A DNA stretch of 55,624 nucleotides from a virus (taxonomy: Duplodnaviria; Caudoviricetes), in IMG/VR virus record IMGVR_UViG_3300006162_000016, positions 1 through 55,624 of that record. One strand, 5' to 3'. The notes beneath the pieces are model-generated. The model searched no databases. It was not told the DNA's origin and saw only the letters and a program-made list of their open reading frames with translations. A program made the translations under genes and the position numbers. Below are positions 2,311-52,893 of the stretch, in pieces (the stretch's first letter is position 1; each line of letters starts with the position of its first letter).

Positions 2311-3957
2311 ATGCCTATTGATACCGTCATTGTGTTAAGTCCCTACCATCCGGCGAATGAGAATAGCCATAGAAACGGTAGCGGCACATATACCTATAAT
2401 CCGGCAATCCCTACGCCTATCTTTTCTTTGGGCTGGGAGTTAGAGGCTAACCATAGCGCGACAAGAGTACCCGCCGGAGTACAGACAATCAGTGACGGAA
2501 GTGTAAACGGTGACGGTACCGAGTATGTAGTATCGCCCGCCGTCACACGTTCGCCGCGCTTCGTCTTAGGTCTTTTGAAAGACTTGGTACACGCTCCAAA
2601 ATTGAATACTGATAAATCGTGTGGGTTCCATGTGCATATGAGTATTCAAAATGCAAGCCTTCCGCGCTTGCGTAACTGGGCTATTGCAACGGAAGCACTA
2701 GCCAAGGACATAGAAGACATAGCCTTTAAAGCCGTGCCGGATGCGCGGCAATCAAATAGTTATTGTAGACGGATACAAGAGATAACGGCGGGCACACGTT
2801 TTGAGGCCACAAAGTACAATAACTCAAGGCGGTATCATTGGCTAAACACCGTTGAAATCTTCCGGCCTAGTGGTATCCGCACGTTAGAGGTACGCTTGCT
2901 AGGAAATACCCATAGATGGAAGTATCTTTTATCATGGGTTACATTCTCGCTACTGTTAGGCCGTGAGGGTTGGAAGGTAGCACATAGACCCTTTGAAAGC
3001 CGCCGAGCTTCCGTTAAGATGTTGACGGAAGTATTAGAGGCCATAATTGCCGACGTAAAGCCGCTAGATAAAAGGTCTGAGCCTATACCAGCATGGGTCT
3101 ATAGTCAATTGAAAAGTTTAGGTATTGAATTCAGCGCGTTTGAAAGGCCGTTGATTGCTCTAGCCAATACAGAGGCCGAGCTTGCCGGACGGTTAAAGAA
3201 ATTCTATTCAGACAATCAAGCTACCGAGGAAAATAATAGTAGTGATGACGATGACTCTTGTCCTTGTGGATGCGGTGAGGATGGTAGGTGTCAATCACAA
3301 TGCCATGATGACGGAGACTGCGATAGTAACGATTGTACCTACTGTCATTCTGACGGTAACTGCGGGGGTTCGCCTGACTGTTACGAGTGTGTGCGAAGTA
3401 GACATGAGGATGACGAATACTGCGGGGGTGATCGTTGCCGAGTCTGTGAAAGAAGTCAGCGCGGGCCATGGGCTGTCAGTGAGGACGAAGACGAAGAGAC
3501 TACAGAGGCCGCGCCGTCCGTTGCTACCTCGTCAAACGTGACGATACACACTAGCAATGTGTTACCGTCAGACCGTGCCGGAGTTAGCGGAGTGCTTACC
3601 GCCGAGTCAATGCGGGCCGCCGTCGAGACGTTGCGGGCTCAAAGTGTAGCAGGGCCGGAAGTACAAGAGGCCATGACTACAATGATAAGGGATAGCGTGC
3701 TCTATGGTACTCACAATCCGGCTAGAGTGTGTATTGACGAAGCTAGTACCGTGCGCGTCAATGTTGAACCATTGAACATTGAAGGCCGGACATGGATAGT
3801 AGGAGAGACTAGGACGGGCCGCATAGTGACAAGCGGAATAGATGATCCGGCGAACTATGCGCCGGACATGGAGCAGTTAGCTAACGGCATGATGACGCAA
3901 GACGAGCAGATACAAAGTATGGATAGGTCAACATTCTATAATGGGGGTGATCGTTAA
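2311..3957 (+). CDS. amidoligase (COOH-NH2 ligase, Amidoligase_2-like) with Cys/His/Asp-rich C-terminal extension
   Basis: GWELE, DGSV, EYVVSP, SCGFHVHMS, RYHWLN, TLEVR motifs. Confidence 0.8.
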   Translation: MPIDTVIVLSPYHPANENSHRNGSGTYTYNPAIPTPIFSLGWELEANHSATRVPAGVQTISDGSVNGDGTEYVVSPAVTRSPRFVLGLLKDLVHAPKLNTDKSCGFHVHMSIQNASLPRLRNWAIATEALAKDIEDIAFKAVPDARQSNSYCRRIQEITAGTRFEATKYNNSRRYHWLNTVEIFRPSGIRTLEVRLLGNTHRWKYLLSWVTFSLLLGREGWKVAHRPFESRRASVKMLTEVLEAIIADVKPLDKRSEPIPAWVYSQLKSLGIEFSAFERPLIALANTEAELAGRLKKFYSDNQATEENNSSDDDDSCPCGCGEDGRCQSQCHDDGDCDSNDCTYCHSDGNCGGSPDCYECVRSRHEDDEYCGGDRCRVCERSQRGPWAVSEDEDEETTEAAPSVATSSNVTIHTSNVLPSDRAGVSGVLTAESMRAAVETLRAQSVAGPEVQEAMTTMIRDSVLYGTHNPARVCIDEASTVRVNVEPLNIEGRTWIVGETRTGRIVTSGIDDPANYAPDMEQLANGMMTQDEQIQSMDRSTFYNGGDR

Positions 3958-3958
3958 C

Positions 3959-4882
3959 ATGTGCGGATTATTCGCCGGAGTAGGTAAGCTGTCAAGTAAC
4001 AGGATGATTGCTCTAGGGTCTATGAATGAGGATAGAGGTACCGATAGCGTAGGTATTGCCTACGTCTCTAATAATGAGGTACGCATTGCCAAGGTAGCGG
4101 ATAGGCCATGTGTGGCATTGAATACCACACTACGCAAGGAAGTAACCGAGGCCGCCGTATCTGGTATGTTTATCGGTCACACGCGACAAGCTACACAAGG
4201 TGAGGTGACAAGTGCTAACGCTCATCCGTTTTTAGATGACGGTATAGCGTTCGCGCACAATGGGATAATTATAAATGATGAGGATTTCGGCAAGTATGCC
4301 GTTGACTCTCAGAGCCTTATACATGGAATCAAGGCTAAAGACTTTAGCAAGTATGAGGGATGTATTGCTCTTGTGTGGATTGAAGGCGGCAAGCTGAAGG
4401 CGTACCGTTGCGGCAATCCTCTATACAGAGGCCGTCATAACGGCGGCACATACTTAGCGAGTGAGGCCGAGCAGTTAAAAGCAATCGGCTGTACTCATGT
4501 CCGGCAATTGGCGGAAGGTATGATCTATACTTTCCATGATGCCACACGCTTAACGAATGAGCGCGTACCTAAGAATAAATCATACTCCTATACGGCGGGC
4601 TATGCGTCAACGGGTCTAGGGTCTTCCCTTGCGGATTATGATTACGGATACAAAAGGCCGGAGTATAAGCTAGACGCGCCGAGACTTACAGGCCGCACAC
4701 TGTTAGACAAGGAAGACTTTAGCACATGGAAGGATGAGCGCGACAAGGCGCACGCGACTACAGACTATTGCGACATGTGCGGGGGGAAGAGTGAGCTATC
4801 AGAGGGTTACTGCTTAGACTGTATCATGTGGATGAAAGACATGGAGACGAAAGACGTACCGCCCGCGCTTGAGGTTAGATAA
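3959..4882 (+). CDS. class II (Ntn) glutamine amidotransferase with C-terminal CxxC...CxxC
   Basis: MCGLF start at 3959 giving catalytic Cys1; RGTDSVG, GHTRQAT, NAHPF, AHNGII, DS. Confidence 0.9.
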   Translation: MCGLFAGVGKLSSNRMIALGSMNEDRGTDSVGIAYVSNNEVRIAKVADRPCVALNTTLRKEVTEAAVSGMFIGHTRQATQGEVTSANAHPFLDDGIAFAHNGIIINDEDFGKYAVDSQSLIHGIKAKDFSKYEGCIALVWIEGGKLKAYRCGNPLYRGRHNGGTYLASEAEQLKAIGCTHVRQLAEGMIYTFHDATRLTNERVPKNKSYSYTAGYASTGLGSSLADYDYGYKRPEYKLDAPRLTGRTLLDKEDFSTWKDERDKAHATTDYCDMCGGKSELSEGYCLDCIMWMKDMETKDVPPALEVR

Positions 4883-5283: not shown

Positions 5284-5682
5284 ATGACACAAGCCGAGAA
5301 AGAATATCAACGGGAATACATGAGACGGTACCGAGCCGACAACCGCAAGAGTATCAATGAGAGAGGACGAGAGTATAGCAAGCGTTACTATGAGGCACAT
5401 AAGAGCGCGTGCAATCGCGCAAGCCTTGACGCTAGATTTAGGCGGAAGTTTGGGCTAACGATTGCCGAGCGTGACGCATTGATACAGGCGCAAGATGGCA
5501 CATGTCCATTGTGCGGGCGGGTCTTCACTAGGTTTGATCGTGCGTGCGTAGACCATGACCATGCAACGGGCCGGATGCGGGGGATTATCTGTAGCTCATG
5601 CAACAAGGCTCTAGGACTATTCAAGGATAGTATTCCGGCCTTGACTCGTGCCATTGCCTACTTGCAAGAGGTGAGGCCGTAA
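5284..5682 (+). CDS. endonuclease VII-family HNH (homing-type)
   Basis: CPLC...CVDHDHATGRMRGIICSSCN..LG. Confidence 0.85.
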   Translation: MTQAEKEYQREYMRRYRADNRKSINERGREYSKRYYEAHKSACNRASLDARFRRKFGLTIAERDALIQAQDGTCPLCGRVFTRFDRACVDHDHATGRMRGIICSSCNKALGLFKDSIPALTRAIAYLQEVRP

Positions 5683-7333: not shown

Positions 7334-7681
7334 ATGAATGGATTTAGAAAACGACTTGCTATTCTCTTAGCGAAGCCAATTAAAGAACCACTAAGAGCAC
7401 GTAGTTCGTGGTACCAAATGATTCAGCGTTGTTACAATCCGAGAAATCAAGGTTTTAAAAATTATGGTGGACGTGGGATAAAAGTGTGTGACCAATGGCG
7501 GAATTCATTTCAAAACTTTCTCAATGACTTAGGAGAAAGGCCACAAGGTCTTACCATCGAAAGAATAAATAACGATGGAGATTATGAACCGGGAAACTGT
7601 AAATGGGCAACGTACACAGAACAGAATAATAACAGAAGACCAGTCTCTAATTTGTGGAGATTACGCATCAAAAAGAGTTAA
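7334..7681 (+). CDS. HNH homing endonuclease
   Basis: MIQRCYNP...[10 protein letters not shown]...[20 protein letters not shown]; AT-rich. Confidence 0.85.
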
Positions 7682-7999: not shown

Positions 8000-8514
8000 A
8001 ACTTCGATATCAGTTAGGACTACTCATCGTCGGGATACTGGGATGCACGCTGATACTTCAGCGCTGTAACAAACCTTTACCTATCCCGAAAGGACCAGCA
8101 CAAATCTCGTATCAAAATGATACGATTGTGATCAAGCAGAAAGGTAAGCCGGATATCAAAGAGTTTCAACCTGATCCTAAGAGCACAGTCATCACGACTG
8201 ATGATAAAGGGCAAGTAACTGTCAAAGTTCGACAGTTTGGTGTTGGGACTGACTTAGGAGTGGGTATCGGGCTCTCAGACCGCGCTAGAGTGGCGCTGGA
8301 TGACCGCTTTGCCTACTTTAAGCGCTTCGGCGCCAATGCCGGCCTTGGGTTCAGTCTGGATAAGAATGACTACAAGAAGGGCCATTTGCTTGACATTGTG
8401 GACCCTTACGTGGGTGCCAGCGTCGTCCCGTTCGTTGGGATGCCAAATACGTCAATAGTTACAGCGTACACTGTAAGTAAACATGCGTTCATCTTTGTGA
8501 GGGTTCGATTCTAA
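7996..8514 (+). CDS. envelope protein, N-terminal TM/signal plus beta-rich C-terminus ending in Phe
   Basis: MKLRYQLGLLIVGILGCTLIL...; amphipathic strands; FIFVRVRF end. Confidence 0.5.
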   Translation: MKLRYQLGLLIVGILGCTLILQRCNKPLPIPKGPAQISYQNDTIVIKQKGKPDIKEFQPDPKSTVITTDDKGQVTVKVRQFGVGTDLGVGIGLSDRARVALDDRFAYFKRFGANAGLGFSLDKNDYKKGHLLDIVDPYVGASVVPFVGMPNTSIVTAYTVSKHAFIFVRVRF

Positions 8515-9692
8515 TGCCTATTCAAACCGTTGTCGAAACGCCACACGTCCCAGTGAAGGTCTGGTCACAGGATGTGGAAGCTGAGGCTTTAAAACAGCTT
8601 GAGAACACCGCCCGTTTACCGTTCGTCTTTAAACATGTAGCGGCAATGCCGGATGTTCATGTAGGACGAGGCGCGACAATTGGCTCAGTCATTGCTACCA
8701 AAGGTGCAGTGATTCCAGCGGCAGTGGGTGTTGATATCGGATGTGGTATGATGGCTGTGAAGACAAACTTAATCGCCGCACAAGTTGCGGAGAAGATTGC
8801 GGAGATTAGGCATAGCATCGAGAGGTCTATCCCAGTAGGCTTCAATGCCAATAAATCACTCAGTCAAGAAGTCCAGAATTGGACTGGATGGGTTGATGGA
8901 TGGATTGTTGAAGCTCATCCGGTGGCTGTCATTCAAAAGAGTGCAGCTCAGCTCGGTTCACTTGGTGGCGGGAATCATTTCATTGAAATCTGTTTGGACA
9001 AAGAAAATAATGTGTGGATCATGTTGCACTCAGGCTCACGCAACATTGGTAAGGTGTTGGCGGAGAAACACATTGATAAAGCCAAAGGTCTGATGAAGCA
9101 GATGTTTATCGGCTTGCCTGATCGCGACTTGGCGTACTTTGCACAAGGAACGCCTGAATTCAACGCATATACGTCCGATGTGCGTTGGGCTCAGTCGTAT
9201 GCCATGTTCAACCGTCAAGAGATGATGAGACGGATTCTTAAAGACCTTGGCTTCATGTTCAATGGCGGGATGCCAATAGAACCAGTATTCTCAGTAAACT
9301 GTCATCACAATTACTTGGAGTGGGAGCATCATTATGGAGAGAACGTTATTGTCACGCGCAAAGGAGCAGTACGCGCTAGAGAAGGAGACATGGGAATTAT
9401 TCCGGGCTCTATGGGCACACGGTCCTACATCGTGCGAGGCCGAGGTAATCCTGAGTCATTCAATTCCTGTTCACATGGGGCAGGTCGTCGTATGTCGAGG
9501 ACGAAGGCAAGGGCTACATTCACTGTGGAGGATTTGGCAAAACAAACAGAAGGGGTCGAATGTCGCAAAGATATTGGGATTGTGGATGAGATTCCGGGCG
9601 CGTATAAAGACATTGATGTGGTGATGGCAAATCAAACAGACTTGGTTGAAATCGTAGCTGAGCTCAAGCAAATTTGTTGCATCAAAGGATAG
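8514..9692 (+). CDS. rtcB: RtcB RNA 2',3'-cyclic phosphate/3'-phosphate ligase
   Basis: MPDVH.G.G, VGVDIGCGM, GGGNHF, HSGSR, HHNY, PGSMG, SHGAGR. Confidence 0.97.
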   Translation: MPIQTVVETPHVPVKVWSQDVEAEALKQLENTARLPFVFKHVAAMPDVHVGRGATIGSVIATKGAVIPAAVGVDIGCGMMAVKTNLIAAQVAEKIAEIRHSIERSIPVGFNANKSLSQEVQNWTGWVDGWIVEAHPVAVIQKSAAQLGSLGGGNHFIEICLDKENNVWIMLHSGSRNIGKVLAEKHIDKAKGLMKQMFIGLPDRDLAYFAQGTPEFNAYTSDVRWAQSYAMFNRQEMMRRILKDLGFMFNGGMPIEPVFSVNCHHNYLEWEHHYGENVIVTRKGAVRAREGDMGIIPGSMGTRSYIVRGRGNPESFNSCSHGAGRRMSRTKARATFTVEDLAKQTEGVECRKDIGIVDEIPGAYKDIDVVMANQTDLVEIVAELKQICCIKG

Positions 9693-15726: not shown

Positions 15727-15927
15727 ATGCTTAGAGTTTTCCGATATGACGGAAAAGAGATGTTTATCAACCCTGATAATATCCTTTTTGTTGAGCTGAT
15801 GGACAAATATACGAGTGTGACGATGGTGGATGGAAAATCACATTCGTTTTCAGAGACTTCATATGAGATTTTGACGGGAAGAAATACGCAGCGTGGACCG
15901 GGTAGAGCTGGATTTGACGTAATATGA
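15727..15927 (+). CDS. small hypothetical protein (FlbD-like pattern)
   Basis: DGKEMFINPDNILFVE...T..T...G; GGGAG RBS. Confidence 0.5.
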   Translation: MLRVFRYDGKEMFINPDNILFVELMDKYTSVTMVDGKSHSFSETSYEILTGRNTQRGPGRAGFDVI

Positions 15928-16331
15928 ATGAATTGGAGGGAATTGCAATTATGCCAACGTTCGTAAGCACTGATGACACGAATCCGAAAGACAAAATAGG
16001 GGCCAAGAAACCCCGGCTATCTCTTGTGCCGCCGTCAGGCCTCGTTTATGCAGCTCTGGCTATGGCAAATGGCGCCGATAAGTATGGACCGTACAACTGG
16101 CGTGAAAAGAAGGTTCAGGCTATGATTTATCTGGAAGCTTGTCAACGACATCTGCTATCATGGCAGGATGGTGAAGAGAATGCCTCAGATAGTGGTGTGT
16201 CACACTTAGGTCATGCGATTGCATGTCTTTTGATTCTCATTGATGCAAAAGAGACTGGACAACTTATCGACAATCGACCGAAGGCTGGCGCTATGGCCTC
16301 GCTAATTGAACGCTTCACGAAAAAGGGATAA
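15924..16331 (+). CDS. DUF5664 / dATP-dGTP diphosphohydrolase-like protein
   Basis: KPRLSLVP, GADKYGPYNW, RHL..W..GE...DSG..HL.HA. Confidence 0.8.
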   Translation: MNELEGIAIMPTFVSTDDTNPKDKIGAKKPRLSLVPPSGLVYAALAMANGADKYGPYNWREKKVQAMIYLEACQRHLLSWQDGEENASDSGVSHLGHAIACLLILIDAKETGQLIDNRPKAGAMASLIERFTKKG

Positions 16332-18839: not shown

Positions 18840-19637
18840 ATGGATAATAACGAGCAACTGAAAATACTTACGCTCGACATTGAGAACTTCCCTTGCGAGG
18901 TTTACTCATGGACACTTGGTGAAGTGCACATTCCGTTAGAGTTTTTGAAGAGAGATTGGTCAGTATGCGCTTGGGCCGCACATTGGTATGGAAAGCCGGC
19001 CAATGAAATCATTTATAAAGACAATCGTGGCAAAAGAGATGTGTATGATGACAAGGAGCTCATCAAAGGGCTGGCTGATTTGATGAATCAAGCCGATGTC
19101 ATTGTGGGACAGAATGTAAAAGCTTTTGATATCAAGAAATTAGCTGCCAGAGCAGTCATTCATGGGTTGCCACCGTTCAAACCTGTGAAGGTGACTGATA
19201 TTTTGACTGAAGAACGCCGAGTCTTTGCGTTCACATCGCACAAGTTGGCCTATAAGACAGAAATTGTCGAGGGCAAGTACAAGAAGCTCAAGCATGAGAA
19301 GTATCCGGGCTTTGACTTGTGGAAAGCGTGCATGGCTAACAAGTTGGATGCGTGGAAAGAGATGGAAACGTATTGCAAGCATGACGTTTTATCGACGGAA
19401 GAGCATTATCATCAAGTCCGGGGCTGGATCAGGACCCAGAATATCTCACCGATTGGTAATAGTGGGAAGATGCAATGCCGCTGCGGTAGTAGCCGCCTCA
19501 TTAAGAAGGGGTATGCTCACACAGAGGTGGGCAAGTATCAAGTCTATCGGTGTCTGGACTGTGGCAAGTGGCCACGGAGTCCAATTAATCTACTCACGAA
19601 AGACCTTCGTGTGAATCGTCTTAGGGAGGCTCAATAA
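18840..19637 (+). CDS. RNase H-fold 3'-5' exonuclease (RNase_H_2/YprB-like) with C-terminal zinc ribbon
   Basis: LDIE, GQN..FD, YCKHDV, CRCGS...CLDCG. Confidence 0.8.
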   Translation: MDNNEQLKILTLDIENFPCEVYSWTLGEVHIPLEFLKRDWSVCAWAAHWYGKPANEIIYKDNRGKRDVYDDKELIKGLADLMNQADVIVGQNVKAFDIKKLAARAVIHGLPPFKPVKVTDILTEERRVFAFTSHKLAYKTEIVEGKYKKLKHEKYPGFDLWKACMANKLDAWKEMETYCKHDVLSTEEHYHQVRGWIRTQNISPIGNSGKMQCRCGSSRLIKKGYAHTEVGKYQVYRCLDCGKWPRSPINLLTKDLRVNRLREAQ

Positions 19638-20551
19638 TGAAGTTGCCCAGTTACGTATCAATCTACAACTTTGGTCACCGTGCAGTGGCCAATCTTTTGG
19701 TGGGGCCAGTCTATGTCCAAGAAAAAGTGGATGGGTCACAATTTTCCTTTGGTGTGGGGGAAGATGGTACTGTTATGACCCGTTCCAAAGGTTCTGAGGT
19801 CTTTTTGGAGACTGCAGATAAGCTGTTCAAAGGAGCCGTGGAATATGTCCATTCGATCAAAGATAAACTCACTCCGGGATACGTATATCGTGGAGAAGTT
19901 CTGTGTCGTCCTAAGCATAATACTTTGGCTTATGATCGGGTACCGCGTCATAATGTCGTGCTCTTTGACATCAATACCGGAGAAGAGTGTTACATGGCTT
20001 ATTCCGATATTCTGAATGAAGCAGCCAAGCTCGATCTGGAAGTGGTCCCGTTGATATATCACGGAATCGTGGAATCCGCTGATCAACTCAAAGCCTTCTT
20101 GGAGACGCAAAGCTTCTTAGGAGGGCAGAAAGTTGAAGGTGTGGTTGTGAAACCCGTCAACTATGATCAGTTCGGTACAGATCACAAAGCGCTCATGGGC
20201 AAATATGTTTCGGAAGCGTTCAAAGAGATTCATGGTGGAGAATGGCGAAAGAACAATCCCACACAGAATGGTGTGATTGACGCCATTGCCCTGCAGTACA
20301 AGACGCCGGCCCGTTGGGAGAAGAGCATTCAGCATCTTCGTGATGCCGGAGAGCTCACAGACTCCCCACAAGACATTGGCAAGCTGATGAAAGCTGTGAA
20401 TGTCGATGTGCTCAAGGAATGTGAAGATGAGATCAGAGCCGAGCTCTTTAAACAGGCGTGGCCAAAGATTGCACGCATCATCACAGCAGGGTTGCCGGAA
20501 TACTATAAGAAGATGCTTCTTGAGAAGCAATTCGTGACGGAGGTCAAATAA
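19637..20551 (+). CDS. ATP-dependent RNA ligase (Rnl2-like nucleotidyltransferase)
   Basis: motif I QEKVDGS, GE, LFDI, VP, EGVVVK, KYVS..FKE. Confidence 0.85.
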   Translation: MKLPSYVSIYNFGHRAVANLLVGPVYVQEKVDGSQFSFGVGEDGTVMTRSKGSEVFLETADKLFKGAVEYVHSIKDKLTPGYVYRGEVLCRPKHNTLAYDRVPRHNVVLFDINTGEECYMAYSDILNEAAKLDLEVVPLIYHGIVESADQLKAFLETQSFLGGQKVEGVVVKPVNYDQFGTDHKALMGKYVSEAFKEIHGGEWRKNNPTQNGVIDAIALQYKTPARWEKSIQHLRDAGELTDSPQDIGKLMKAVNVDVLKECEDEIRAELFKQAWPKIARIITAGLPEYYKKMLLEKQFVTEVK

Positions 20552-20552
20552 G

Positions 20553-21038
20553 ATGAAAGTGATATTCTTAGATTTCGATGGAGTGATCAACTCCGAGGCT
20601 AGTTTCCGCTATGAAGTTCGGCGGAAGACACAAAGTGTTGGAGATACGCTTTCTCCTATTGCGTGTTCCAATCTGCAGTACATCCTTGATCAAGATGCGG
20701 ATATCAAACTTGTCATCTCATCGACATGGCGTAAGCTCCATTCTCTTGAGGAATTGAAACACATCCTTCAGGCCTACGGAGTCAATGGAAACAAGGTCTT
20801 GAGCAAGACACCTTGCGTATTCAGTGGTGATCGGGGCCATGAGATTCGTCTGTGGCTTGATGAGAATCCGAATGTGACAAAATACGTCATCTTGGATGAC
20901 GATAGCACAGCTATGAGTGCCTTGCAGACTGAAGCGGGTGAAGACAAACGAGGTCACTTCTTCCAAACGACATGGGAAGATGGACTCCTGAACAAACAGG
21001 CGAAAGCAATTGCAAAACTTTTCCGAGGAGAAAAATAA
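20553..21038 (+). CDS. HAD phosphatase, Swiss-Army-Knife RNA-repair type
   Basis: FLDFDGV, VISSTWR, RG.EI..WL, YVILDD. Confidence 0.85.
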   Translation: MKVIFLDFDGVINSEASFRYEVRRKTQSVGDTLSPIACSNLQYILDQDADIKLVISSTWRKLHSLEELKHILQAYGVNGNKVLSKTPCVFSGDRGHEIRLWLDENPNVTKYVILDDDSTAMSALQTEAGEDKRGHFFQTTWEDGLLNKQAKAIAKLFRGEK

Positions 21039-22305: not shown

Positions 22306-22587
22306 ATGATTCGATGGATAGGACTGATATGTGCTACAGGGTCCGTTCTTTTTGACCTAGCCTCATATTGGAAGCAGATTAGTAAGACTCTGCGTACAAA
22401 ACGGAGTGCTCAGGTATCATCGAGCGCGTATCTGATGAAGTTGTCGCATTACACTTGTTCTATCATTGCCTTGGCTGTCTTTGCGAACTGGACAGGATTC
22501 ACAATGGAGATGTTTGCGTTCGGCGCCTGCCTGATCTGTTTCGGGCTGGTCATTAAGTTTAAACCTAAGAATTGGAGGCTTTTCTGA
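22306..22587 (+). CDS. PQ-loop/SemiSWEET-like three-TM protein
   Basis: IG..A...(WK)QI.K..RTK....VS pattern with three TM helices. Confidence 0.6.
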   Translation: MIRWIGLICATGSVLFDLASYWKQISKTLRTKRSAQVSSSAYLMKLSHYTCSIIALAVFANWTGFTMEMFAFGACLICFGLVIKFKPKNWRLF

Positions 22588-22991
22588 TGCGTGGTTGCAT
22601 GTCATGTGATAACGAACAAGAGACGGCTTATCTCATGGGAATGAAAGATGTCAGTCAGATTCAATGTCCTGTGTGCCGACTTGAGACTGTAGAGAAGCGT
22701 ACCATTCAGTCATTGGTGAAAGAAGCTCATGAGACGGCAGTAGAAAAAGGCTGGTGGCGGGATGAACGGTCCCTGCTTGATTGCATTGCACTTATCCATT
22801 GTGAACTGAGTGAAGCCGTGGAAGCCTATCGCAAAGGAGATGAGGCCCATGTCGTTGAAGAGTTGGCTGATGTGCTTATTCGTGTGTTTGACTTATGTGG
22901 TCGTCGGGGCTGGAATCTTGAGAAGTCTGTCCTTGATAAGATGGCCTTCAATAAGACTCGATCTTATAGACATGGAGGGAAGATAGCGTGA
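22587..22991 (+). CDS. MazG-like NTP pyrophosphohydrolase
   Basis: LIHCELSEAVEA, EELADVLIR..DL, KM.FN..R...HG. Confidence 0.9.
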   Translation: MRGCMSCDNEQETAYLMGMKDVSQIQCPVCRLETVEKRTIQSLVKEAHETAVEKGWWRDERSLLDCIALIHCELSEAVEAYRKGDEAHVVEELADVLIRVFDLCGRRGWNLEKSVLDKMAFNKTRSYRHGGKIA

Positions 22992-45832: not shown

Positions 45833-46159
45833 CTATTTTAGATAATCTGCTGCCCTTGCACACAAATTGGTATCGTCATTAAAGAGTCCAATACCTTTGT
45901 TGCAAGCCTGACAAAGTAAACCACGCACCAAATTTGTTTTATGGTCATGGTCAACACAAAGTGCTGTTTTTAACTCACTTTGGTGTCTACGACAAATATT
46001 ACAACATCCCTGTTGATTTTGATAAAGAATATCAAAATGCTTGAATTTAAAATCTTCACCAGTTGAAGTTTTTATTCCAGCGTACTTCCAACAAGCTTCT
46101 TGATTTGCTTTCTTGTTGTTCTGATAATAGACTTTATTATAAAGCTTTTGGGAGTTCAT
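45833..46159 (-). CDS. endonuclease VII-family HNH
   Basis: CNIC...LCVDHDHKT.LVRGLLCQACN.GIG; AT-rich. Confidence 0.85.
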   Translation of the reverse strand: MNSQKLYNKVYYQNNKKANQEACWKYAGIKTSTGEDFKFKHFDILYQNQQGCCNICRRHQSELKTALCVDHDHKTNLVRGLLCQACNKGIGLFNDDTNLCARAADYLK

Positions 46160-47610: not shown

Positions 47611-47637
47611 TTTAGCTCCTTGAATCATTCACGTCAA

Positions 47638-47670
47638 ATTGTGCATGGGATGCTTTCGCAGAGCCCATGG
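47638..47670 (-). terminator. hairpin after capsid gene, possible terminator/processing site
   Basis: CATGGG-ctc-TGC-GAAA-GCA-t-CCCATG then CACAATTT. Confidence 0.45.
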
Positions 47671-47688
47671 CTAACTTAAATCTACTGC

Positions 47689-48633
47689 TTAGGCCGCACT
47701 CGTACCAATAACTTCGATGGCACGCTGCGAATCCAGAACAGGATACACCGCATAAGCTTTCCAGCCGATGCTGCCGTTCAGGTTCAACGGATCAGCCACG
47801 CCTGAATCACCCGGTTGGTGCACGATCTTCTGAATCCCTTGGTTGGCCACATCGACCGCACCGAAGGACTCTTTCCCGAACACCCAGCTATGATACGTGA
47901 CGGCAGACGACGCGCCAGTACCAGTCAGGATATTCTGCGATTCTTGGAAACGAATGTTGTACAACTTTCCAAGTTCGCCAGCCAAGGCCATATTATGCAC
48001 CTTGTCGATGCTGATATACTTATTCAGCTCGATCCAGCCACTCGCAGCGCTATCGCTCTGCAGGTCGAAGCTGGTGTTGGGGTGAACCAAACCGTGATAC
48101 GTTCCATCTTCAAACGGCATAACCGCGAGAGCACGGAGATGCGCCGAAGCCCGGCGGAAGTCAACGCCAGCAGCAACGACCGACACAGTGGCTTCAGAGA
48201 CAGCCGACCCAGTGTACTGAATGGTCATGTTACCGGACAGAGAGTTCCGACAGATGGTGTCCAACGACAACCCGGCCTGATATCCAAGAACGTCATGGAT
48301 AGCTTCCGTGATATTGTCATACGCTTCCAACATGAGTCTGTCAGAATACGAAACGAACGCTCCATACTGCAGAGGCGTCGCAAGGATTTTTGTGGACTGC
48401 CAAACCAATCCGTTCGGGTTTGCACCTTCGCCTAGCGGCGTGGTGACTGCAGCCTGATTGACAGGGCGCAGGAACTGAATTTGCGTACCGGAAGCTTTCG
48501 GAAGGGTGCGCTTTTCCGCGTTCTCTTGGAAGAACAAAGAGAACATCAAGCGGGTTAACAGTTTGCGGTCATAGAAAATGGCCGACGCGTCATTAAGCCC
48601 ACTCGTTGAGGTGATATTTACATTGAGAGACAT
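47689..48633 (-). CDS. major capsid protein (N4 gp56-like, HK97 fold)
   Basis: FYD..LL, LP...G..I.F, L.EG..P, QYG, GELG...IRF.ES, DPL....GWK. Confidence 0.9.
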   Translation of the reverse strand: MSLNVNITSTSGLNDASAIFYDRKLLTRLMFSLFFQENAEKRTLPKASGTQIQFLRPVNQAAVTTPLGEGANPNGLVWQSTKILATPLQYGAFVSYSDRLMLEAYDNITEAIHDVLGYQAGLSLDTICRNSLSGNMTIQYTGSAVSEATVSVVAAGVDFRRASAHLRALAVMPFEDGTYHGLVHPNTSFDLQSDSAASGWIELNKYISIDKVHNMALAGELGKLYNIRFQESQNILTGTGASSAVTYHSWVFGKESFGAVDVANQGIQKIVHQPGDSGVADPLNLNGSIGWKAYAVYPVLDSQRAIEVIGTSAA

Positions 48634-48639
48634 AGTAAT

Positions 48640-48860
48640 TACCTTTGAGAGTTTGATATGTGTGAGCGCGATATCTCATGCACAATTGTACAAGTGCCAA
48701 GGTTAGTGACCGTTTAGCCGTCACCGCATCCGTTCGTTCTGGGGCGTCCACACTGCACGCTTGTCCGTTACTACTGGACACATGCCTTATCTCGTACTAA
48801 CGAGGGGCCTGCTGGTTACCAATCAGATTGTCCTAAACACCGGGTCTGTTTGGTAACTAA
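48640..48860 (-). ncRNA. multi-hairpin leader/ncRNA upstream of capsid gene
   Basis: GTTACCAA/TTGGTAAC, CTCGT/ACGAG, TGTCC/GGACA, GTGAC/GTCAC, TGAG/CTCA stems. Confidence 0.5.
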
Positions 48861-48864
48861 AAAT

Positions 48865-48939
48865 TGGTTGCAGAGGACGGAATCGAACCGTCTACCTTCG
48901 GCTTATGAGGCCGACGAGCTACCAATGCTCCACTCCGCG
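48865..48939 (-). tRNA. tRNA-fMet (CAT), CCA encoded
   Basis: CGCGGAG TG GAGC ATTGGTA GCTC G TCGGC CTCATAA GCCGA AGGTA GACGG TTCGATT CCGTC CTCTGCA A CCA; C1:A72 mismatch. Confidence 0.95.
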
Positions 48940-48941
48940 AA

Positions 48942-49012
48942 AGCTGCTGCTCTACCCACTGAGCTACTCCCCCGATGGAGGAGGTGAGAATCGAACTCAC
49001 GACCTAGCTGCT
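48942..49012 (-). ncRNA. circularly permuted tRNA-Ala-like element
   Basis: AGCAGCT AGGTC GTGAG TTCGATT CTCAC CTCCTCC ATC GGGGGAG TA GCTC AGTGGGTA GAGC AGCAGCT: T arm precedes D arm. Confidence 0.85.
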
Positions 49013-49054
49013 AAAATTGTGCCGGGGATTTTAACCCCCGGTCTTCGTTATTAC

Positions 49055-50032
49055 TTAGCTGTTCTGCTGCTGAGCAATGAGCCACTCACGCTGTTCATTC
49101 AAAGACATTTTCTTAAATGCCGCTAAATGATCAGAGGGGATTCTGCCGGCGCCTTTACCTGCACTGGCCACCGTTCCACCTTTGGCTTCTTCAGAGAGCG
49201 CGGCTTGCGCTTCTTTGATTGCTTCTTCTCTTGCAGCTTTGGCAATGGCGTCTTTTTCTTTCGCCAACATGTCTGCCAACATACTTTTCATTTCTGATTC
49301 TTTATAGACTTTCTCAGCCGAAACTACCGGAGCAGCTTGTGCGGCAGAAGCTGGATTCTCTTGCAAAGCCAGTTCATACAACGCATCGAGCACTTCAGCA
49401 GCAGGCTTCGTAAAGTCAATTCGAGGATCACCCTGCCCAGTGGGTCCCATTGCTATCTTCACAATACTAGGATACAGTCTCTTCCACTCAGGATAATTCT
49501 CAGTGTCTTGCTCACGCCGCATTCGTTCAAGCGCGGTATCTTTAGCTTTCGCTTCGGACGCCAGCGCATCTAAACGTTCTTGGAGCTCGGCAGTCGCAGA
49601 CTCTTTTTCATTCTCAATGATCTGTGCCAACTCTTCGGGACTCTTCTTGGACAACTCTTTGTAGTCCATTGGAGTCTTGGACATCTTGGCCAACAACTTA
49701 TAAGTCTTTTCCTGTTCAGCTCGGATAGCTGCCATCTCATCCCGCAGCTTCTTATTTTCCTGACTGACTCTCGTATTCCACTTGCGGAGCTCGGCTGGAT
49801 CATTCGGCTCTTTCTTTTCAGGTTTGACTTCTGGCTTCTTGTCATCAGCCTTCTGTTCAGGAGCTTTCTGTTCTGGCGCCTTCTCTTCTTTCTTCTCTGG
49901 TGTCTCAGGAGCCTTCTCTTCAGACTTCTGTTCCGGGGCCTTGGCCGCCGCTTCCTTCTCCGCTGTTTCTAAAGCTTCTGCTCTTTGCGCGATTGATGCT
50001 GGGCTTACAACACTCATTCCTTGCTTATCCAT
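49055..50032 (-). CDS. capsid scaffolding protein
   Basis: E/K/P-rich N-terminus, coiled coil, C-terminal KMSLNEQREWL helix; between portal and capsid. Confidence 0.75.
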   Translation of the reverse strand: MDKQGMSVVSPASIAQRAEALETAEKEAAAKAPEQKSEEKAPETPEKKEEKAPEQKAPEQKADDKKPEVKPEKKEPNDPAELRKWNTRVSQENKKLRDEMAAIRAEQEKTYKLLAKMSKTPMDYKELSKKSPEELAQIIENEKESATAELQERLDALASEAKAKDTALERMRREQDTENYPEWKRLYPSIVKIAMGPTGQGDPRIDFTKPAAEVLDALYELALQENPASAAQAAPVVSAEKVYKESEMKSMLADMLAKEKDAIAKAAREEAIKEAQAALSEEAKGGTVASAGKGAGRIPSDHLAAFKKMSLNEQREWLIAQQQNS

Positions 50033-50100
50033 TTACTTCTCCCTGTGCTTGTCGATTGTCCACTTTCGTGGGTCGGGCGTAGGCTACGAAGTTCCCCCTA

Positions 50101-50460
50101 CTACTCGATTCCTAAACTGCGTCTATCATCTTCCACAGCTTTGAAATGTTCTTGGATTGCTTTAGAAGCAATCTGTCCGGCTAAACTTTGTGCATGAATC
50201 CAATTGCGAAGCTTGACCATTCCTTGAATCTGAAAAATGACCTTACGATGATCACCATCAGCATCATTGAAAATGGTGCGCTGCGATTCTTCAATTGCAT
50301 TCTTCATATACTCTTCAATCTTCTGCCACGCTGGATGCCGGCGCAGGTCTTCAAATAGCGCCCCAGTATGAGCTTGTTTCTCAAGACTGTCAAGTTGCTG
50401 CAAAATCTTTGCCTCGTCTGGAAGATTGTAAGGGTCTTTCGCCATCTCTGCAAAGTCCAT
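50101..50460 (-). CDS. conserved head-module protein
   Basis: L..HPAW..I helical protein between portal and scaffold. Confidence 0.6.
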   Translation of the reverse strand: MDFAEMAKDPYNLPDEAKILQQLDSLEKQAHTGALFEDLRRHPAWQKIEEYMKNAIEESQRTIFNDADGDHRKVIFQIQGMVKLRNWIHAQSLAGQIASKAIQEHFKAVEDDRRSLGIE

Positions 50461-50633: not shown

Positions 50634-50815
50634 TAGTATCCCCCTTTCGATAAACCTCTCATGAAACCAGTGTGCGCTGATTTCTTCATATCTTGCTTCT
50701 TGCTTTTATGATATGGCAACTTCTTTCCTTTCGGAGTAGCAGCTTCAAATTCTTTGGCCAATTCTGGATGCTTGGCATACATGTAGCCCTTCTGGGCTTG
50801 GCTAACGAATGGCAT
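50633..50815 (-). CDS. small basic conserved phage protein
   Basis: MPF.S.AQ..YMYA.HPE.AKEF...TP...KLP. Confidence 0.7.
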   Translation of the reverse strand: MPFVSQAQKGYMYAKHPELAKEFEAATPKGKKLPYHKSKKQDMKKSAHTGFMRGLSKGGY

Positions 50816-52893
50816 TATTTTAACCCTATTGGCATTGAGGGTGCACCGGGCAGATTCACATGCCCGACACCGCTATTCATCTGCGGCACAATACTATTCG
50901 CTGCTGGTGCCGGAGGTGTAGCGCCACCGCCAGCTGCCGCTAAAATTGCTTTCCCTTGCGCGGCTGATCCACCACCCGCAGGAGGGGGAGGAGCATTAGG
51001 GTTCGTCAGACCGGGAATTGTTGCACCACCACCAGCCGGGGCTGTGGCGGGTTGAGGATTCAAAGCCGCTGCGCGAATGTCCTTGGAATCAAATCCCATC
51101 AGTTCCCATATTTGTTTCAAGATGATGTCAATGGATTCTGGCGCCAATTGCTGTTGCGCCAAAGTGAAGAACGTAGACATCTGATTGACTTTCTGATCCC
51201 GATTGACCATCTCTGAAAGCACAGTCATTTTGAAATTGACACCAGCTGCCGTGCGAATCATGGCCGGAGTTACAATGGCCGGCTGCGGGAAGAGATGACC
51301 ATAGAATGCACGAATGACTTCAGAATTCGTGAGGTATTGCAAATCAAGCATGTAGAAAAGACGAAGAACGTGTTTGATACCTTTTGTCTCAATCGCTTTG
51401 GCAGCAGTAGCAAATTTCTCCATAGCTTGAGAAACAGCCACCTTCGCCACACCAAGACCAACGCCTTTGTTGTTACCTTGCATGTCGTCAATATTCCCTG
51501 TGAGGGAAGCTGGGACGGTTGCATTAAACATATCCTGCTGAATGGCCTGTGCGTCCTGATATGCATTTGTGGTAACGTCTGTGCGCGGAATTGGCTGTAG
51601 GTTCTCCATGGCATCCACAAGGATGACGCCGGACGGACTGGAAGCCACCTTGTCCACGTCGATACTCGTATCCGTGGAAAGCACTTTGTACATCTGGTTG
51701 ATCAAAATATTTACGTTGTCGAGGCGCTGCCGACGAACCAAGTTCGTTTCGTTTTGTAGACTCAAAACTGGTTCGATCAATCCGATACCATACCACTCGA
51801 AAGGTACCTTGCAGAAGTTGACTTTGACAAGCGGAATCTCTTGGTGATCAAACGGATTTGGTACTGCACGCACAACGATTTGACGATTGGCGATAACGAT
51901 CTGGCAGGGTTCATCCTTGCCGTCTCCATCCAAGTCATAATAGCCCCAGACTTCGATGAGTTCAATATCCTTCGGAGAAACTGTAGTGATTTCACCACGA
52001 GCGGTCTTTCTCCACTGTCGGGTTTCTTGAAATTTCACAGACGCGCCGGTAGCCATGGCCGCGTCTTTATTCCCGAAGTACGGTTGAGGAGAATCACAAA
52101 TCCGTGCGAATTCATCACGATTTATGAACTTCCGAATCATGACGGAAGGCTGGCCATCAACCTCGGCGTGGTCCTGAGACGGGAACACATCAAGTACGTC
52201 CAGAACAGTGAGCTTAGGTTTTCGACCTACAATCTCGTATCGTTTCTTCGTTTCATAGGTCGTCTTTTCTTGGTTGATTCCGTTGTCATCAACAAAGCGA
52301 TTCACCTTCGGAACGCGGTTGACTTTCCATTGCCATTCCACTTCCCAGTCAACCCAGAAGTAACTGGTGCCGTACATCAGCAATTGTTTCAAAAACGTTT
52401 CATATTTATCGTCAAAATCGTTCTTATCAAACTGGTCCGAAAGTAGCCGTTTGATATTCTTGGCTACGTCGGCCTCATTGATATCGTTGGCCACAACGTC
52501 AAAAAGAGATTCATTTCCAGATGTGAAACTGATAAGTTTGGGTGTAGCAATTTCGATGATTTGGAAAATTAAGGGGATGAAAACCTTGCTGCGCGTCGGC
52601 GTCCGGGTAGCGATATTTCCGCTCATGTACTGGACGTAAATCTGCCACCAAAGGATTTCATATGCCCGGCGCCAATTCTCACGTTCGATCAAATCAGCAA
52701 TATATTTGGCAACGATTTCTTTCTGGGTGGCTAACGAATAAGCATCATCTGATTCATTATCGGTGGCCGCTTCATAGTCATCAGGGACCTGAATCTGAAT
52801 AGGGCTATCGCCTGTCATTTGATCGAGTTCTTCTTTACCTTCCTCGTTCTCGATCTCCTGAAGTTGATCGTCCTTTTCTTCGTAATCGGCCAT
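50815..52893 (-). CDS. portal protein
   Basis: RSKVFIP, YGT, EVWG, NPF, P...YG.G; 692 aa after terminase. Confidence 0.85.
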   Translation of the reverse strand: MADYEEKDDQLQEIENEEGKEELDQMTGDSPIQIQVPDDYEAATDNESDDAYSLATQKEIVAKYIADLIERENWRRAYEILWWQIYVQYMSGNIATRTPTRSKVFIPLIFQIIEIATPKLISFTSGNESLFDVVANDINEADVAKNIKRLLSDQFDKNDFDDKYETFLKQLLMYGTSYFWVDWEVEWQWKVNRVPKVNRFVDDNGINQEKTTYETKKRYEIVGRKPKLTVLDVLDVFPSQDHAEVDGQPSVMIRKFINRDEFARICDSPQPYFGNKDAAMATGASVKFQETRQWRKTARGEITTVSPKDIELIEVWGYYDLDGDGKDEPCQIVIANRQIVVRAVPNPFDHQEIPLVKVNFCKVPFEWYGIGLIEPVLSLQNETNLVRRQRLDNVNILINQMYKVLSTDTSIDVDKVASSPSGVILVDAMENLQPIPRTDVTTNAYQDAQAIQQDMFNATVPASLTGNIDDMQGNNKGVGLGVAKVAVSQAMEKFATAAKAIETKGIKHVLRLFYMLDLQYLTNSEVIRAFYGHLFPQPAIVTPAMIRTAAGVNFKMTVLSEMVNRDQKVNQMSTFFTLAQQQLAPESIDIILKQIWELMGFDSKDIRAAALNPQPATAPAGGGATIPGLTNPNAPPPPAGGGSAAQGKAILAAAGGGATPPAPAANSIVPQMNSGVGHVNLPGAPSMPIGLK

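Follow-up and report, generated by a model that had tools for sequence, protein, structure and literature searches.

We analysed a 71-nt element on the minus strand (49012..48942) of the IMG/VR virus record IMGVR_UViG_3300006162_000016, the whole of which (55,624 bases, with a completeness estimate of 96%) is referred to here as the window, and which represents an uncultured phage that the run labels place in freshwater. The element is a selected structure, conserved to a degree that exceeds chance. By covariance-model comparison it is best described as a homologue of the tRNA-like core of YrlA, a Y RNA of Salmonella Typhimurium and many other bacteria (Rfam RF02553), yet it is not a YrlA member as that RNA has been defined. 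Its topology is that of YrlA and so is already known; the unusual part is what is missing. The Ro60-binding helix and the V arm have either been lost from the element or were never present in it. Our favoured reading, which we put forward tentatively, is that the element is a stand-alone version of the tRNA-like (or 'effector-binding') domain of YrlA, and that it works in trans, as a ligand with the shape of a tRNA that cannot be charged, a function we infer from its anatomy.

The original prediction had described a tRNA-Ala-like RNA in which the 3' half of a tRNA precedes the 5' half. All of the bases that it listed are present where it placed them, and the permuted topology is borne out by both the sequence and RNAfold. 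Read along the minus strand, the element begins with the 5' strand of a closing stem (AGCAGCU, 49006..49012), which pairs with a second AGCAGCU at the 3' end (48942..48948) and takes the place of the tRNA anticodon stem. This stem is 7 bp long with a central mismatch (the predicted A:A) and is flanked by non-pairing U. There follows a variable loop, AGGUC (49001..49005), which has no V-arm hairpin, is invariant in 7/7 sequences, and contains a C48 that can pair with G15. The T arm, GUGAG-UUCGAUU-CUCAC (48984..49000), has a conserved UUCGANU loop and matches YrlA model positions. Next is a closed acceptor stem-loop (48967..48983), consisting of the acceptor 3' strand CTCCTCC (48977-48983), A73 (48976), the loop bases TC (48975-48974) and the acceptor 5' strand GGGGGAG (48973-48967); as RNA this is CUCCUCC - AUC - GGGGGAG, a fully paired stem of 7 bp capped by 3 nt, with G3:U70 in the window phage. 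U8-A9 (48966-48965) then leads into the D arm, GCUC-AGUGGGUA-GAGC (GCTC-AGTGGGTA-GAGC as DNA; 48964-48949), which carries G18 and G19 on an invariant stem and is identical in sequence to the YrlA consensus GUAGCUCA..GGUAGAGC. The nucleotides that make tertiary contacts in tRNA (U8, A14, G15, G18, G19, C48, T54, Psi55-C56 and A58) are all there, and none of them varies.

No anticodon loop is encoded. Beyond the closing stem there is only an invariant UUUU on the 5' side, the last four bases of a CACAATTTT tract (49013..49021) that is itself invariant in 7/7 sequences, and an invariant UU on the 3' side (48940..48941; alignment columns 83-84, 7/7), though the sequence downstream of this UU varies among relatives. 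Two nucleotides after the element begins a tRNA that had been proposed to be tRNA-fMet, and ARAGORN indeed calls tRNA-Met(CAT) at 48939-48865. When the window was scanned in its native order with ARAGORN and Rfam, this tRNA-Met was the only tRNA found, and the element was not detected as a tRNA.

Folding of the 71 nt by RNAfold gives the proposed four-helix structure as both the minimum-energy and the centroid structure (-25.4 kcal/mol). The folding energy is unremarkable by itself (z = -1.47, with 19/200 shuffles folding equally well or better). Misassembly, a possibility that the original prediction had raised against itself, was assessed over 48700-49200. Contigs X1 and X2 span this region with 0 differences, although both may be source samples; X3 covers 48935-49200, an independent run (X4) covers 48700-48944 only, and no joints were reported. 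Since six related contigs from other samples carry the same architecture, we regard misassembly as very unlikely.

The strongest evidence for a selected structure comes from covariation. A capsid protein search of IMG/VR yielded 19 related loci, six of which contain the element according to a pattern search across whole loci: L001-L005, at 95-98% capsid identity, and L012, at 85%. The same search did not find it in the other 13, which keep the hairpin that precedes the element in the window, the tRNA and the leader of the capsid gene. Together with the window this gives an alignment (A1) of seven sequences, six of them distinct. All 22 pairs are kept in every sequence (132/132 cells paired), and eight of the 22 are changed on both sides: two in the closing stem, three in the T stem and three in the acceptor stem. 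None of 500 shuffles reaches these values, and sliding the partners by 1-3 columns leaves 0-1 double-sided changes. Of the six pairs in the closing stem, two show compensatory changes, while no member has a standard pair at the centre, where A.A (or, in two members, A.C) stands; three of the five T-stem pairs are changed on both sides; and the acceptor stem, which is 7 bp in 7/7 members, has three pairs changed on both sides and two on one. The four D-stem pairs do not vary. Because pairing is kept throughout and double-sided changes are found in the acceptor stem itself, two independent decaying tRNA fragments, the outcome named in advance as fatal to the original prediction, are ruled out. 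We also considered that the two AGCAGCT copies might be a target-site duplication, and reject this because it is the pairing and not the repeat that is conserved: L005 (AGCAACU/AGUCGCU) and L012 (AGCAGAU/AUCCGCU) retain the stem and lose the identity of its strands.

The same alignment removes the label 'tRNA-Ala-like'. G3:U70 and A73 are both present in the window, but as features of the family they do not stand: G3:U70 occurs in 4/6 distinct sequences, A, U and C are all found at position 73, L002 and L003 have a bulged A, and the acceptor stem of L005 is wholly replaced (CUGACUC/GAGUCAG). The loop that caps the stem is also variable (AUC, CUU or UUC).

The similarity to YrlA, which had been noticed from the order of the arms, is supported by a covariance-model match at 49006-48947 scoring 37.7 bits, with E = 1e-6 on 601 bases under permissive thresholds and E = 9.5e-5 when all 4227 Rfam families are run on the whole window, where it is the sole element of this kind. 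The aligned part is positions 25-83 of the 114 in the model, that is, the tRNA-like core. A strong match to an ordinary YrlA had been named as an outcome that would reduce the novelty of the element. The core is indeed homologous, but the score is below the Rfam gathering threshold of 69 bits and only core positions are matched. We do not place much weight on the threshold itself, because canonical YrlAs of other phyla also score only 35-43 bits: 40-43 bits for those in contigs of Streptomyces, Paenibacillus and Bacteroides (L138, L184 and L157) and 35-42 bits for those of phages bearing TROVE (the Ro60 domain, PF05731). A scan of 13 phage loci gave no YrlA match that reaches the gathering score. 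The difference lies in how much of the model is covered, which among seven compared matches is 1-114 for L138, L184, L032 and L065, 24-84 for L157, and ∼23-87 for L037 and L036.

In the part of Chen et al. 2014 available to us, three things define a YrlA: a module that binds Ro60 (GNCGAAN0-1G), a domain resembling tRNA, and placement on the same strand within ∼4 kb of rsr; its V arm, a stem-loop beginning YUAY, precedes the T arm (PMC4201824). In the element, model positions 1-24 and 84-114 have no counterpart, so that the Ro60-binding helix is absent; there is no V arm before the T arm, the plain 5-nt AGGUC standing directly after the closing stem; and a search of the flanks found no conserved GNCGAA or CGAA motif. 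An AACGAAG lies upstream of the hairpin only in the window and L001, and not in L003 or L005; for want of conservation we do not accept it as a Ro60 motif. By the published definition the element falls outside YrlA, since three of the required features were looked for and are lacking. What it shares with YrlA is the order of T arm, closed acceptor-like stem-loop and D arm, a near-invariant D-arm sequence, the T loop and the tRNA tertiary bases, together with the lack of a CCA end and of an anticodon loop. Both also have an irregular stem at the position of the anticodon stem, seen in the element as the central mismatch and in YrlA, in what was available of the crystal structure description, as a kink. 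In contrast to YrlA, the closing stem of the element is only 7 bp and U-flanked, where canonical YrlA has a GTTACTTCG-type 5' strand, and the element sits in a phage late operon beside tRNA-fMet rather than in an rsr-yrlBA-rtcBA operon. The Mycobacterium smegmatis YrlA likewise differs in being bound by Rsr and encoded beside rsr. Modification by TruB and DusA, besides binding by Rsr, is a further attribute of YrlA. Phage-encoded Y-type RNAs have been described in mycobacteriophages (Chen 2014) and, as Yrl1 and Yrl2, in Thermus phage phiLo. According to the portions of these reports available to us they lie near a phage Ro60 gene and have a stem-bulge-stem with a CGAA motif, unlike the lineage of the element.

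The absence of a Ro60 gene, also noted from the window at the outset, extends to two sister genomes. TROVE was found in none of the three complete genomes of the lineage (G000, the window, 96% complete; G001 and G002, both 100% and both carrying the element), in a search in which control genomes responded. For comparison we picked, by reading the scan output, 16 other phage records with closed-acceptor YrlA-like elements and longer outer stems. TROVE is present in 8/16 of these; of the eight with a completeness of 90% or more, five have it (G006, G008, G010, G012 and, weakly, G022) and three do not (G007, G019 and G021). Loss of the Ro60 handle goes with the lack of Ro60 in the lineage of the element, but this lineage is not unique among phages in having a Y-like RNA and no Ro60.

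The restriction of the minimal form to this family was explored with exact-pattern scans, which miss divergent members. A core-pattern scan of 185,579 species genomes gave 57 stretches, 14 with a 7/7 closed acceptor stem; those inspected have a long, GTTACTTCG-like 5' strand and a V-arm hairpin before AGGTC, and no short closing stem. The corresponding scan of IMG/VR viral contigs gave 29 stretches, with the minimal form in six family contigs only, while an earlier, looser viral scan, the counts of which are lower bounds, had given at least 117. The 5'-junction pattern of the family matched one stretch in metagenome contigs, on a contig of 58094 bases, a length that the contig of L012 shares. 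The literature consulted, which did not extend to the lists of YrlA loci, 22 phages among them, of Chen et al. 2014, describes no phage with a minimal YrlA module lacking Ro60; furthermore, the search in that paper, as its available text describes it, covered TROVE-containing genomes only.

The scans also brought out a second kind of phage YrlA-like RNA (L131, L085, L081, L125, L203 and L215), in which an outer stem and an (A/U)ACAGCAA motif, which replaces the GTTACTTCG-type strand, are followed by a hairpin, the T arm, a closed acceptor stem and the D arm. Some of these RNAs lie within tRNA clusters, and that of L131 is followed by a tRNA-Met, as in the window. Two complete genomes, G007 (354 kb) and G019 (179 kb), carry an RNA of this kind and no TROVE. 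In another phage contig fragment (L046, 4738-5051) a single cluster combines a closed-acceptor tRNA-like element with several tRNAs and a tmRNA (111.7 bits). The element itself resembles two-piece tmRNA in its permuted order, with the T arm followed by the acceptor strands, and has weak matches to the Rfam models tmRNA_permuted (20.9 bits) and beta_tmRNA (19.7 bits). These fall well short of the respective gathering scores (47 and 84), ARAGORN calls no tmRNA, and there is neither a tag reading frame nor pseudoknots, so we do not consider it a tmRNA.

In the scheme that we propose, in which expression, RNA ends, trans action and target are all predicted, the element, which lies between the scaffold and capsid genes, would be transcribed as part of the late structural operon and excised by host tRNA-processing enzymes. 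Its 3' end would be set by the RNase P cut at the 5' end of tRNA-fMet, 2 nt downstream, and its 5' end by a cut in the AU-rich CACAAUUUU that follows the hairpin, whereupon the RNA would fold into an L-shaped tRNA body. Because the acceptor end is sealed by the 3-nt loop and the anticodon loop is lacking, such a molecule could be neither charged nor used for decoding, and would offer no site to anticodon nucleases. It would act in trans as a stable, tRNA-shaped ligand, occupying a protein that recognises either the tRNA body or the YrlA effector domain. An unchargeable mimic or decoy was one of the two functions originally suggested, and is the one that we prefer; it fits the anatomy. Candidate targets are an effector of YrlA proposed to read the conserved D and T stems, PNPase, and a tRNA-directed host (anticodon) nuclease. 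In the accessible text of Hughes et al. 2020 (PMC7790460), the YrlA tRNA-like domain is proposed as a possible competitive inhibitor of an anticodon nuclease, and phage Y-like RNAs, those of phiLo, are reported, in the part of PMC12135203 available to us, to bind host PNPase in gel shifts. The patchy distribution of the element (6/19 loci) and its independence of an adjacent tRNA (other sequence intervenes between the two in L001, L004 and L012) suggest an accessory, trans-acting character.

Several observations weigh against this proposal. In the minimum-energy fold of the unprocessed 191-nt context, the closing stem does not form. Chen et al. 2014 report, in the text available (PMC4201824), that a 7-bp acceptor stem made the M. 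smegmatis YrlA an RNase P substrate; the stem of the element is of the same length, so that in vivo its sealed end may become open. The place of the element, fixed immediately after operon punctuation, would suit a role in cis as well. Finally, the link with RNA repair is weak. The phage encodes an RtcB RNA ligase (8514..9692, plus strand; PF01139, E = 1e-128), an Rnl-type RNA ligase (19637-20551, plus strand; PF09414, E = 2.7e-15; phrog_548, RNA ligase) and, following the latter, a HAD phosphatase domain of the type found in 'Swiss Army Knife' proteins of RNA repair, at 20553-21038 (plus strand; PF18143, E = 5.5e-26). With the spare initiator tRNA, these genes suggest that tRNA damage matters to the phage. 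However, although the Rnl-type ligase is present in 3/3 family genomes, RtcB is present in two of the three complete family genomes and none of five family fragments, the complete sister G001 has the element and no RtcB, and RtcB is found in 0/5 other complete element-bearing phages. Given these counts, we reject co-occurrence with RNA repair as general evidence of function.

The main rival to a sealed, trans-acting ligand is that the element is a tRNA-like RNA opened by RNase P. Cleavage 5' of G1, trimming of the 2-nt tail and addition of CCA would leave two pieces held together by 14 bp, which may be aminoacylated (by AlaRS where G3:U70 and A73 are present) and may act on the translation apparatus or gain protection from exonucleases. 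The acceptor stem is consistent with this, being 7 bp in every member and stacked on a 5-bp T stem, as is the presence of G3:U70 and A73 in the window. There is also a precedent, in that M1 RNA cleaves the M. smegmatis YrlA at the predicted site, after which CCA is added, and the available text of Chen et al. 2014 (PMC4201824) credits this to the 7-bp stem. Conversely, the identity elements vary among members, including the bulged A of L002 and L003, no CCA is encoded, a loop of 3 nt would constrain the '5' leader' tightly, and the loop sequence varies freely. We judge this explanation improbable, if worth keeping in view.

We assign a similarly low likelihood to a cis element of the late operon, in which the tRNA-shaped block and the tRNA would together recruit RNase P or RNase E, split the scaffold and capsid messages, and shield the resulting ends. 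The element always stands directly after the hairpin and CACAATTTT, upstream of the tRNA and the capsid leader. Protection from nucleases is among the possible roles of the tRNA fold listed in the text of Chen et al. 2014 available to us. A promoter scan of 48500-50200 found 0 sigma-70-like sites, so the element is probably co-transcribed with its neighbours. Against a role in cis, the 13/19 related loci without the element keep the hairpin, tRNA and leader, the tRNA by itself already provides an RNase P site, and the homologous modules of other phages lie within tRNA gene clusters and not before capsid genes.

It is less likely still that the element is an ordinary Y RNA that uses Ro60 supplied by the host through an unrecognised site. 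Its core scores like those of bona fide YrlAs, and the complete phages G007, G019 and G021 have longer YrlA-like RNAs and also no TROVE. Against this, positions 1-24 and 84-114 of the YrlA model are unmatched, the stem is 7 bp with non-pairing U flanks, there is no conserved GNCGAA or CGAA motif (AACGAAG being present in the window and L001 but not in L003 or L005), and the flank is common to relatives that have no element. Very unlikely indeed, and already disfavoured by the covariation, is that a Y RNA or two tRNA fragments are decaying here without function: the element is patchy and the scans found it in one lineage only, but 100% of its pairs are kept, eight changes in three helices are double-sided, the acceptor stem of L005 has been fully replaced with pairing intact, and every tertiary-contact base is invariant.

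Least credible of all is the other function first suggested, a precursor that phage RtcB or Rnl would join end to end into a circle and RNase P would reopen at the acceptor to give a working tRNA. Circularly permuted tRNA genes, in which the 3' half is encoded first, occur in red and green algae and in one archaeon; they encode a complete tRNA with an anticodon loop and mature through a circular intermediate. The element has the same order of halves, a short linker across the acceptor ends, and a phage that encodes both kinds of ligase, and ARAGORN calls the re-permuted molecule a tRNA in 7/7 members and in 0/200 shuffles. It nevertheless differs from the algal and archaeal genes in having no anticodon loop: the joined invariant flanks supply six U only, giving a loop of non-canonical length with no purine 37. 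The tRNA call holds up as a measure of tRNA-likeness, but its anticodon is meaningless; 'tRNA-Lys(UUU)' is an artefact that we reject, because ARAGORN still calls a tRNA when the U flanks are removed, with a different anticodon, whatever fills the loop. In addition, the identity elements are not conserved, G001 has the element without RtcB, and L001 and L012 have no tRNA after the element to define a 3' end.

The locus in which the element lies belongs to a phage remote from those with names, capsid and DNA polymerase tblastn matches to named phages being at most 34% identical in protein sequence. The late genes on the minus strand run from portal (50815-52893) through small open reading frames (ORFs) and a scaffold-like ORF of 325 aa (49055-50032) to a non-coding stretch and the major head protein (47689-48633; phrog_1357, E = 5.6e-47). 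The 421-base non-coding stretch between the last two genes consists of a hairpin, CACAATTTT, the 71-nt element, TT, tRNA-Met and a leader of ∼230 nt. The hairpin is GC-rich, follows the stop codon of the scaffold-like ORF at 49022..49041 (minus strand; its stem was listed on the plus strand), and lies outside the RNA element; a hairpin of differing sequence occupies the same place in 6/6 relatives. The hairpin with CACAATTTT is a terminator-like or processing-like operon punctuation signal, and in relatives without the element CACAATTTT stands directly 5' of the tRNA. The tRNA-Met(CAU) itself (48865..48939, minus strand; Rfam tRNA, 61.2 bits) is initiator-like, has an encoded CCA, and, as read from the sequence, places C1 opposite A72 as bacterial initiator tRNAs do.

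Some further features of the region and of the genome are of interest in their own right. A GC-rich hairpin followed by CACAATTT ends both the scaffold-like and the capsid genes (49013-49041 and 47636-47680, minus strand), the tract after the capsid gene being at 47643..47636, and in relatives the same combination stands 5' of every tRNA-like gene. As a punctuation signal specific to the lineage, it is a terminator or else a site of processing. CACAATTT occurs seven times in the window against 3.3 expected. The ∼230-nt leader from the tRNA to the capsid start codon (48634-48864, minus strand) is conserved down to 66% capsid identity (alignment A2, 16 loci), and contains runs of C that do not vary as well as about three repeats of a GGAYAAG(G) unit (examples are ACCC..AGGACAA, GCCCC..GAGATAAGG and GGACAAGCG..GCCCC); it has no Rfam match, and RNAalifold on a rough alignment gave nothing. 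The window encodes three endonuclease VII or HNH-type, homing-endonuclease-like genes (5284-5682, 7334-7681 and 45833-46159), and L010, L011 and L018 carry an ORF of this type between the tRNA and the capsid gene, suggesting that this interval is a frequent insertion site. The hot spot upstream of the capsid gene in L005 (3593-3760), L004 and L007 holds odd initiator-like tRNAs with a GTGCGACTC T loop, one of which ARAGORN does not call. L005 also has a tRNA-Ala(UGC) with G3:U70 there, and L004 and L007 have Ala-like genes whose T arm is odd. Elsewhere in the window (2311-4882, 15924-16331 and 22572-22991) are genes for an amidoligase and a class-II glutamine amidotransferase, the N-terminal domain of a dATP/dGTP diphosphohydrolase, and a MazG-like gene, a set which suggests that the phage modifies its DNA bases.

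The role of the tRNA-like domain of bacterial Y RNAs has been in question since 2014, when the authors, in the text available to us, favoured an interactor. A trimmed version comprising only this domain, in phages that lack Ro60, argues for an activity of the domain that is independent of Ro60. It is possible, though in our view doubtful, that the element is a Y RNA reduced to its effector domain ('effector-domain-only'), which would be the first natural one, and that the phage makes it as a free module of tRNA shape to compete with the host's own partners for a protein recognising YrlA or the tRNA body. If so, YrlA's tRNA-like domain would work alone and without Ro60, and the phage would use it either to uncouple the Ro60-YrlA-PNPase RNA-degradation machine of its host or to block a tRNA-directed immune nuclease. 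The 71-nt element thus offers a bait for finding the partner of the domain, and a natural test of whether the domain acts without Ro60. Should that partner be a nuclease or PNPase, an RNA-based, tRNA-shaped inhibitor would be added to the counter-defences of phages; should the element be only a processing signal, it would be an example of tRNA mimicry serving as operon punctuation.

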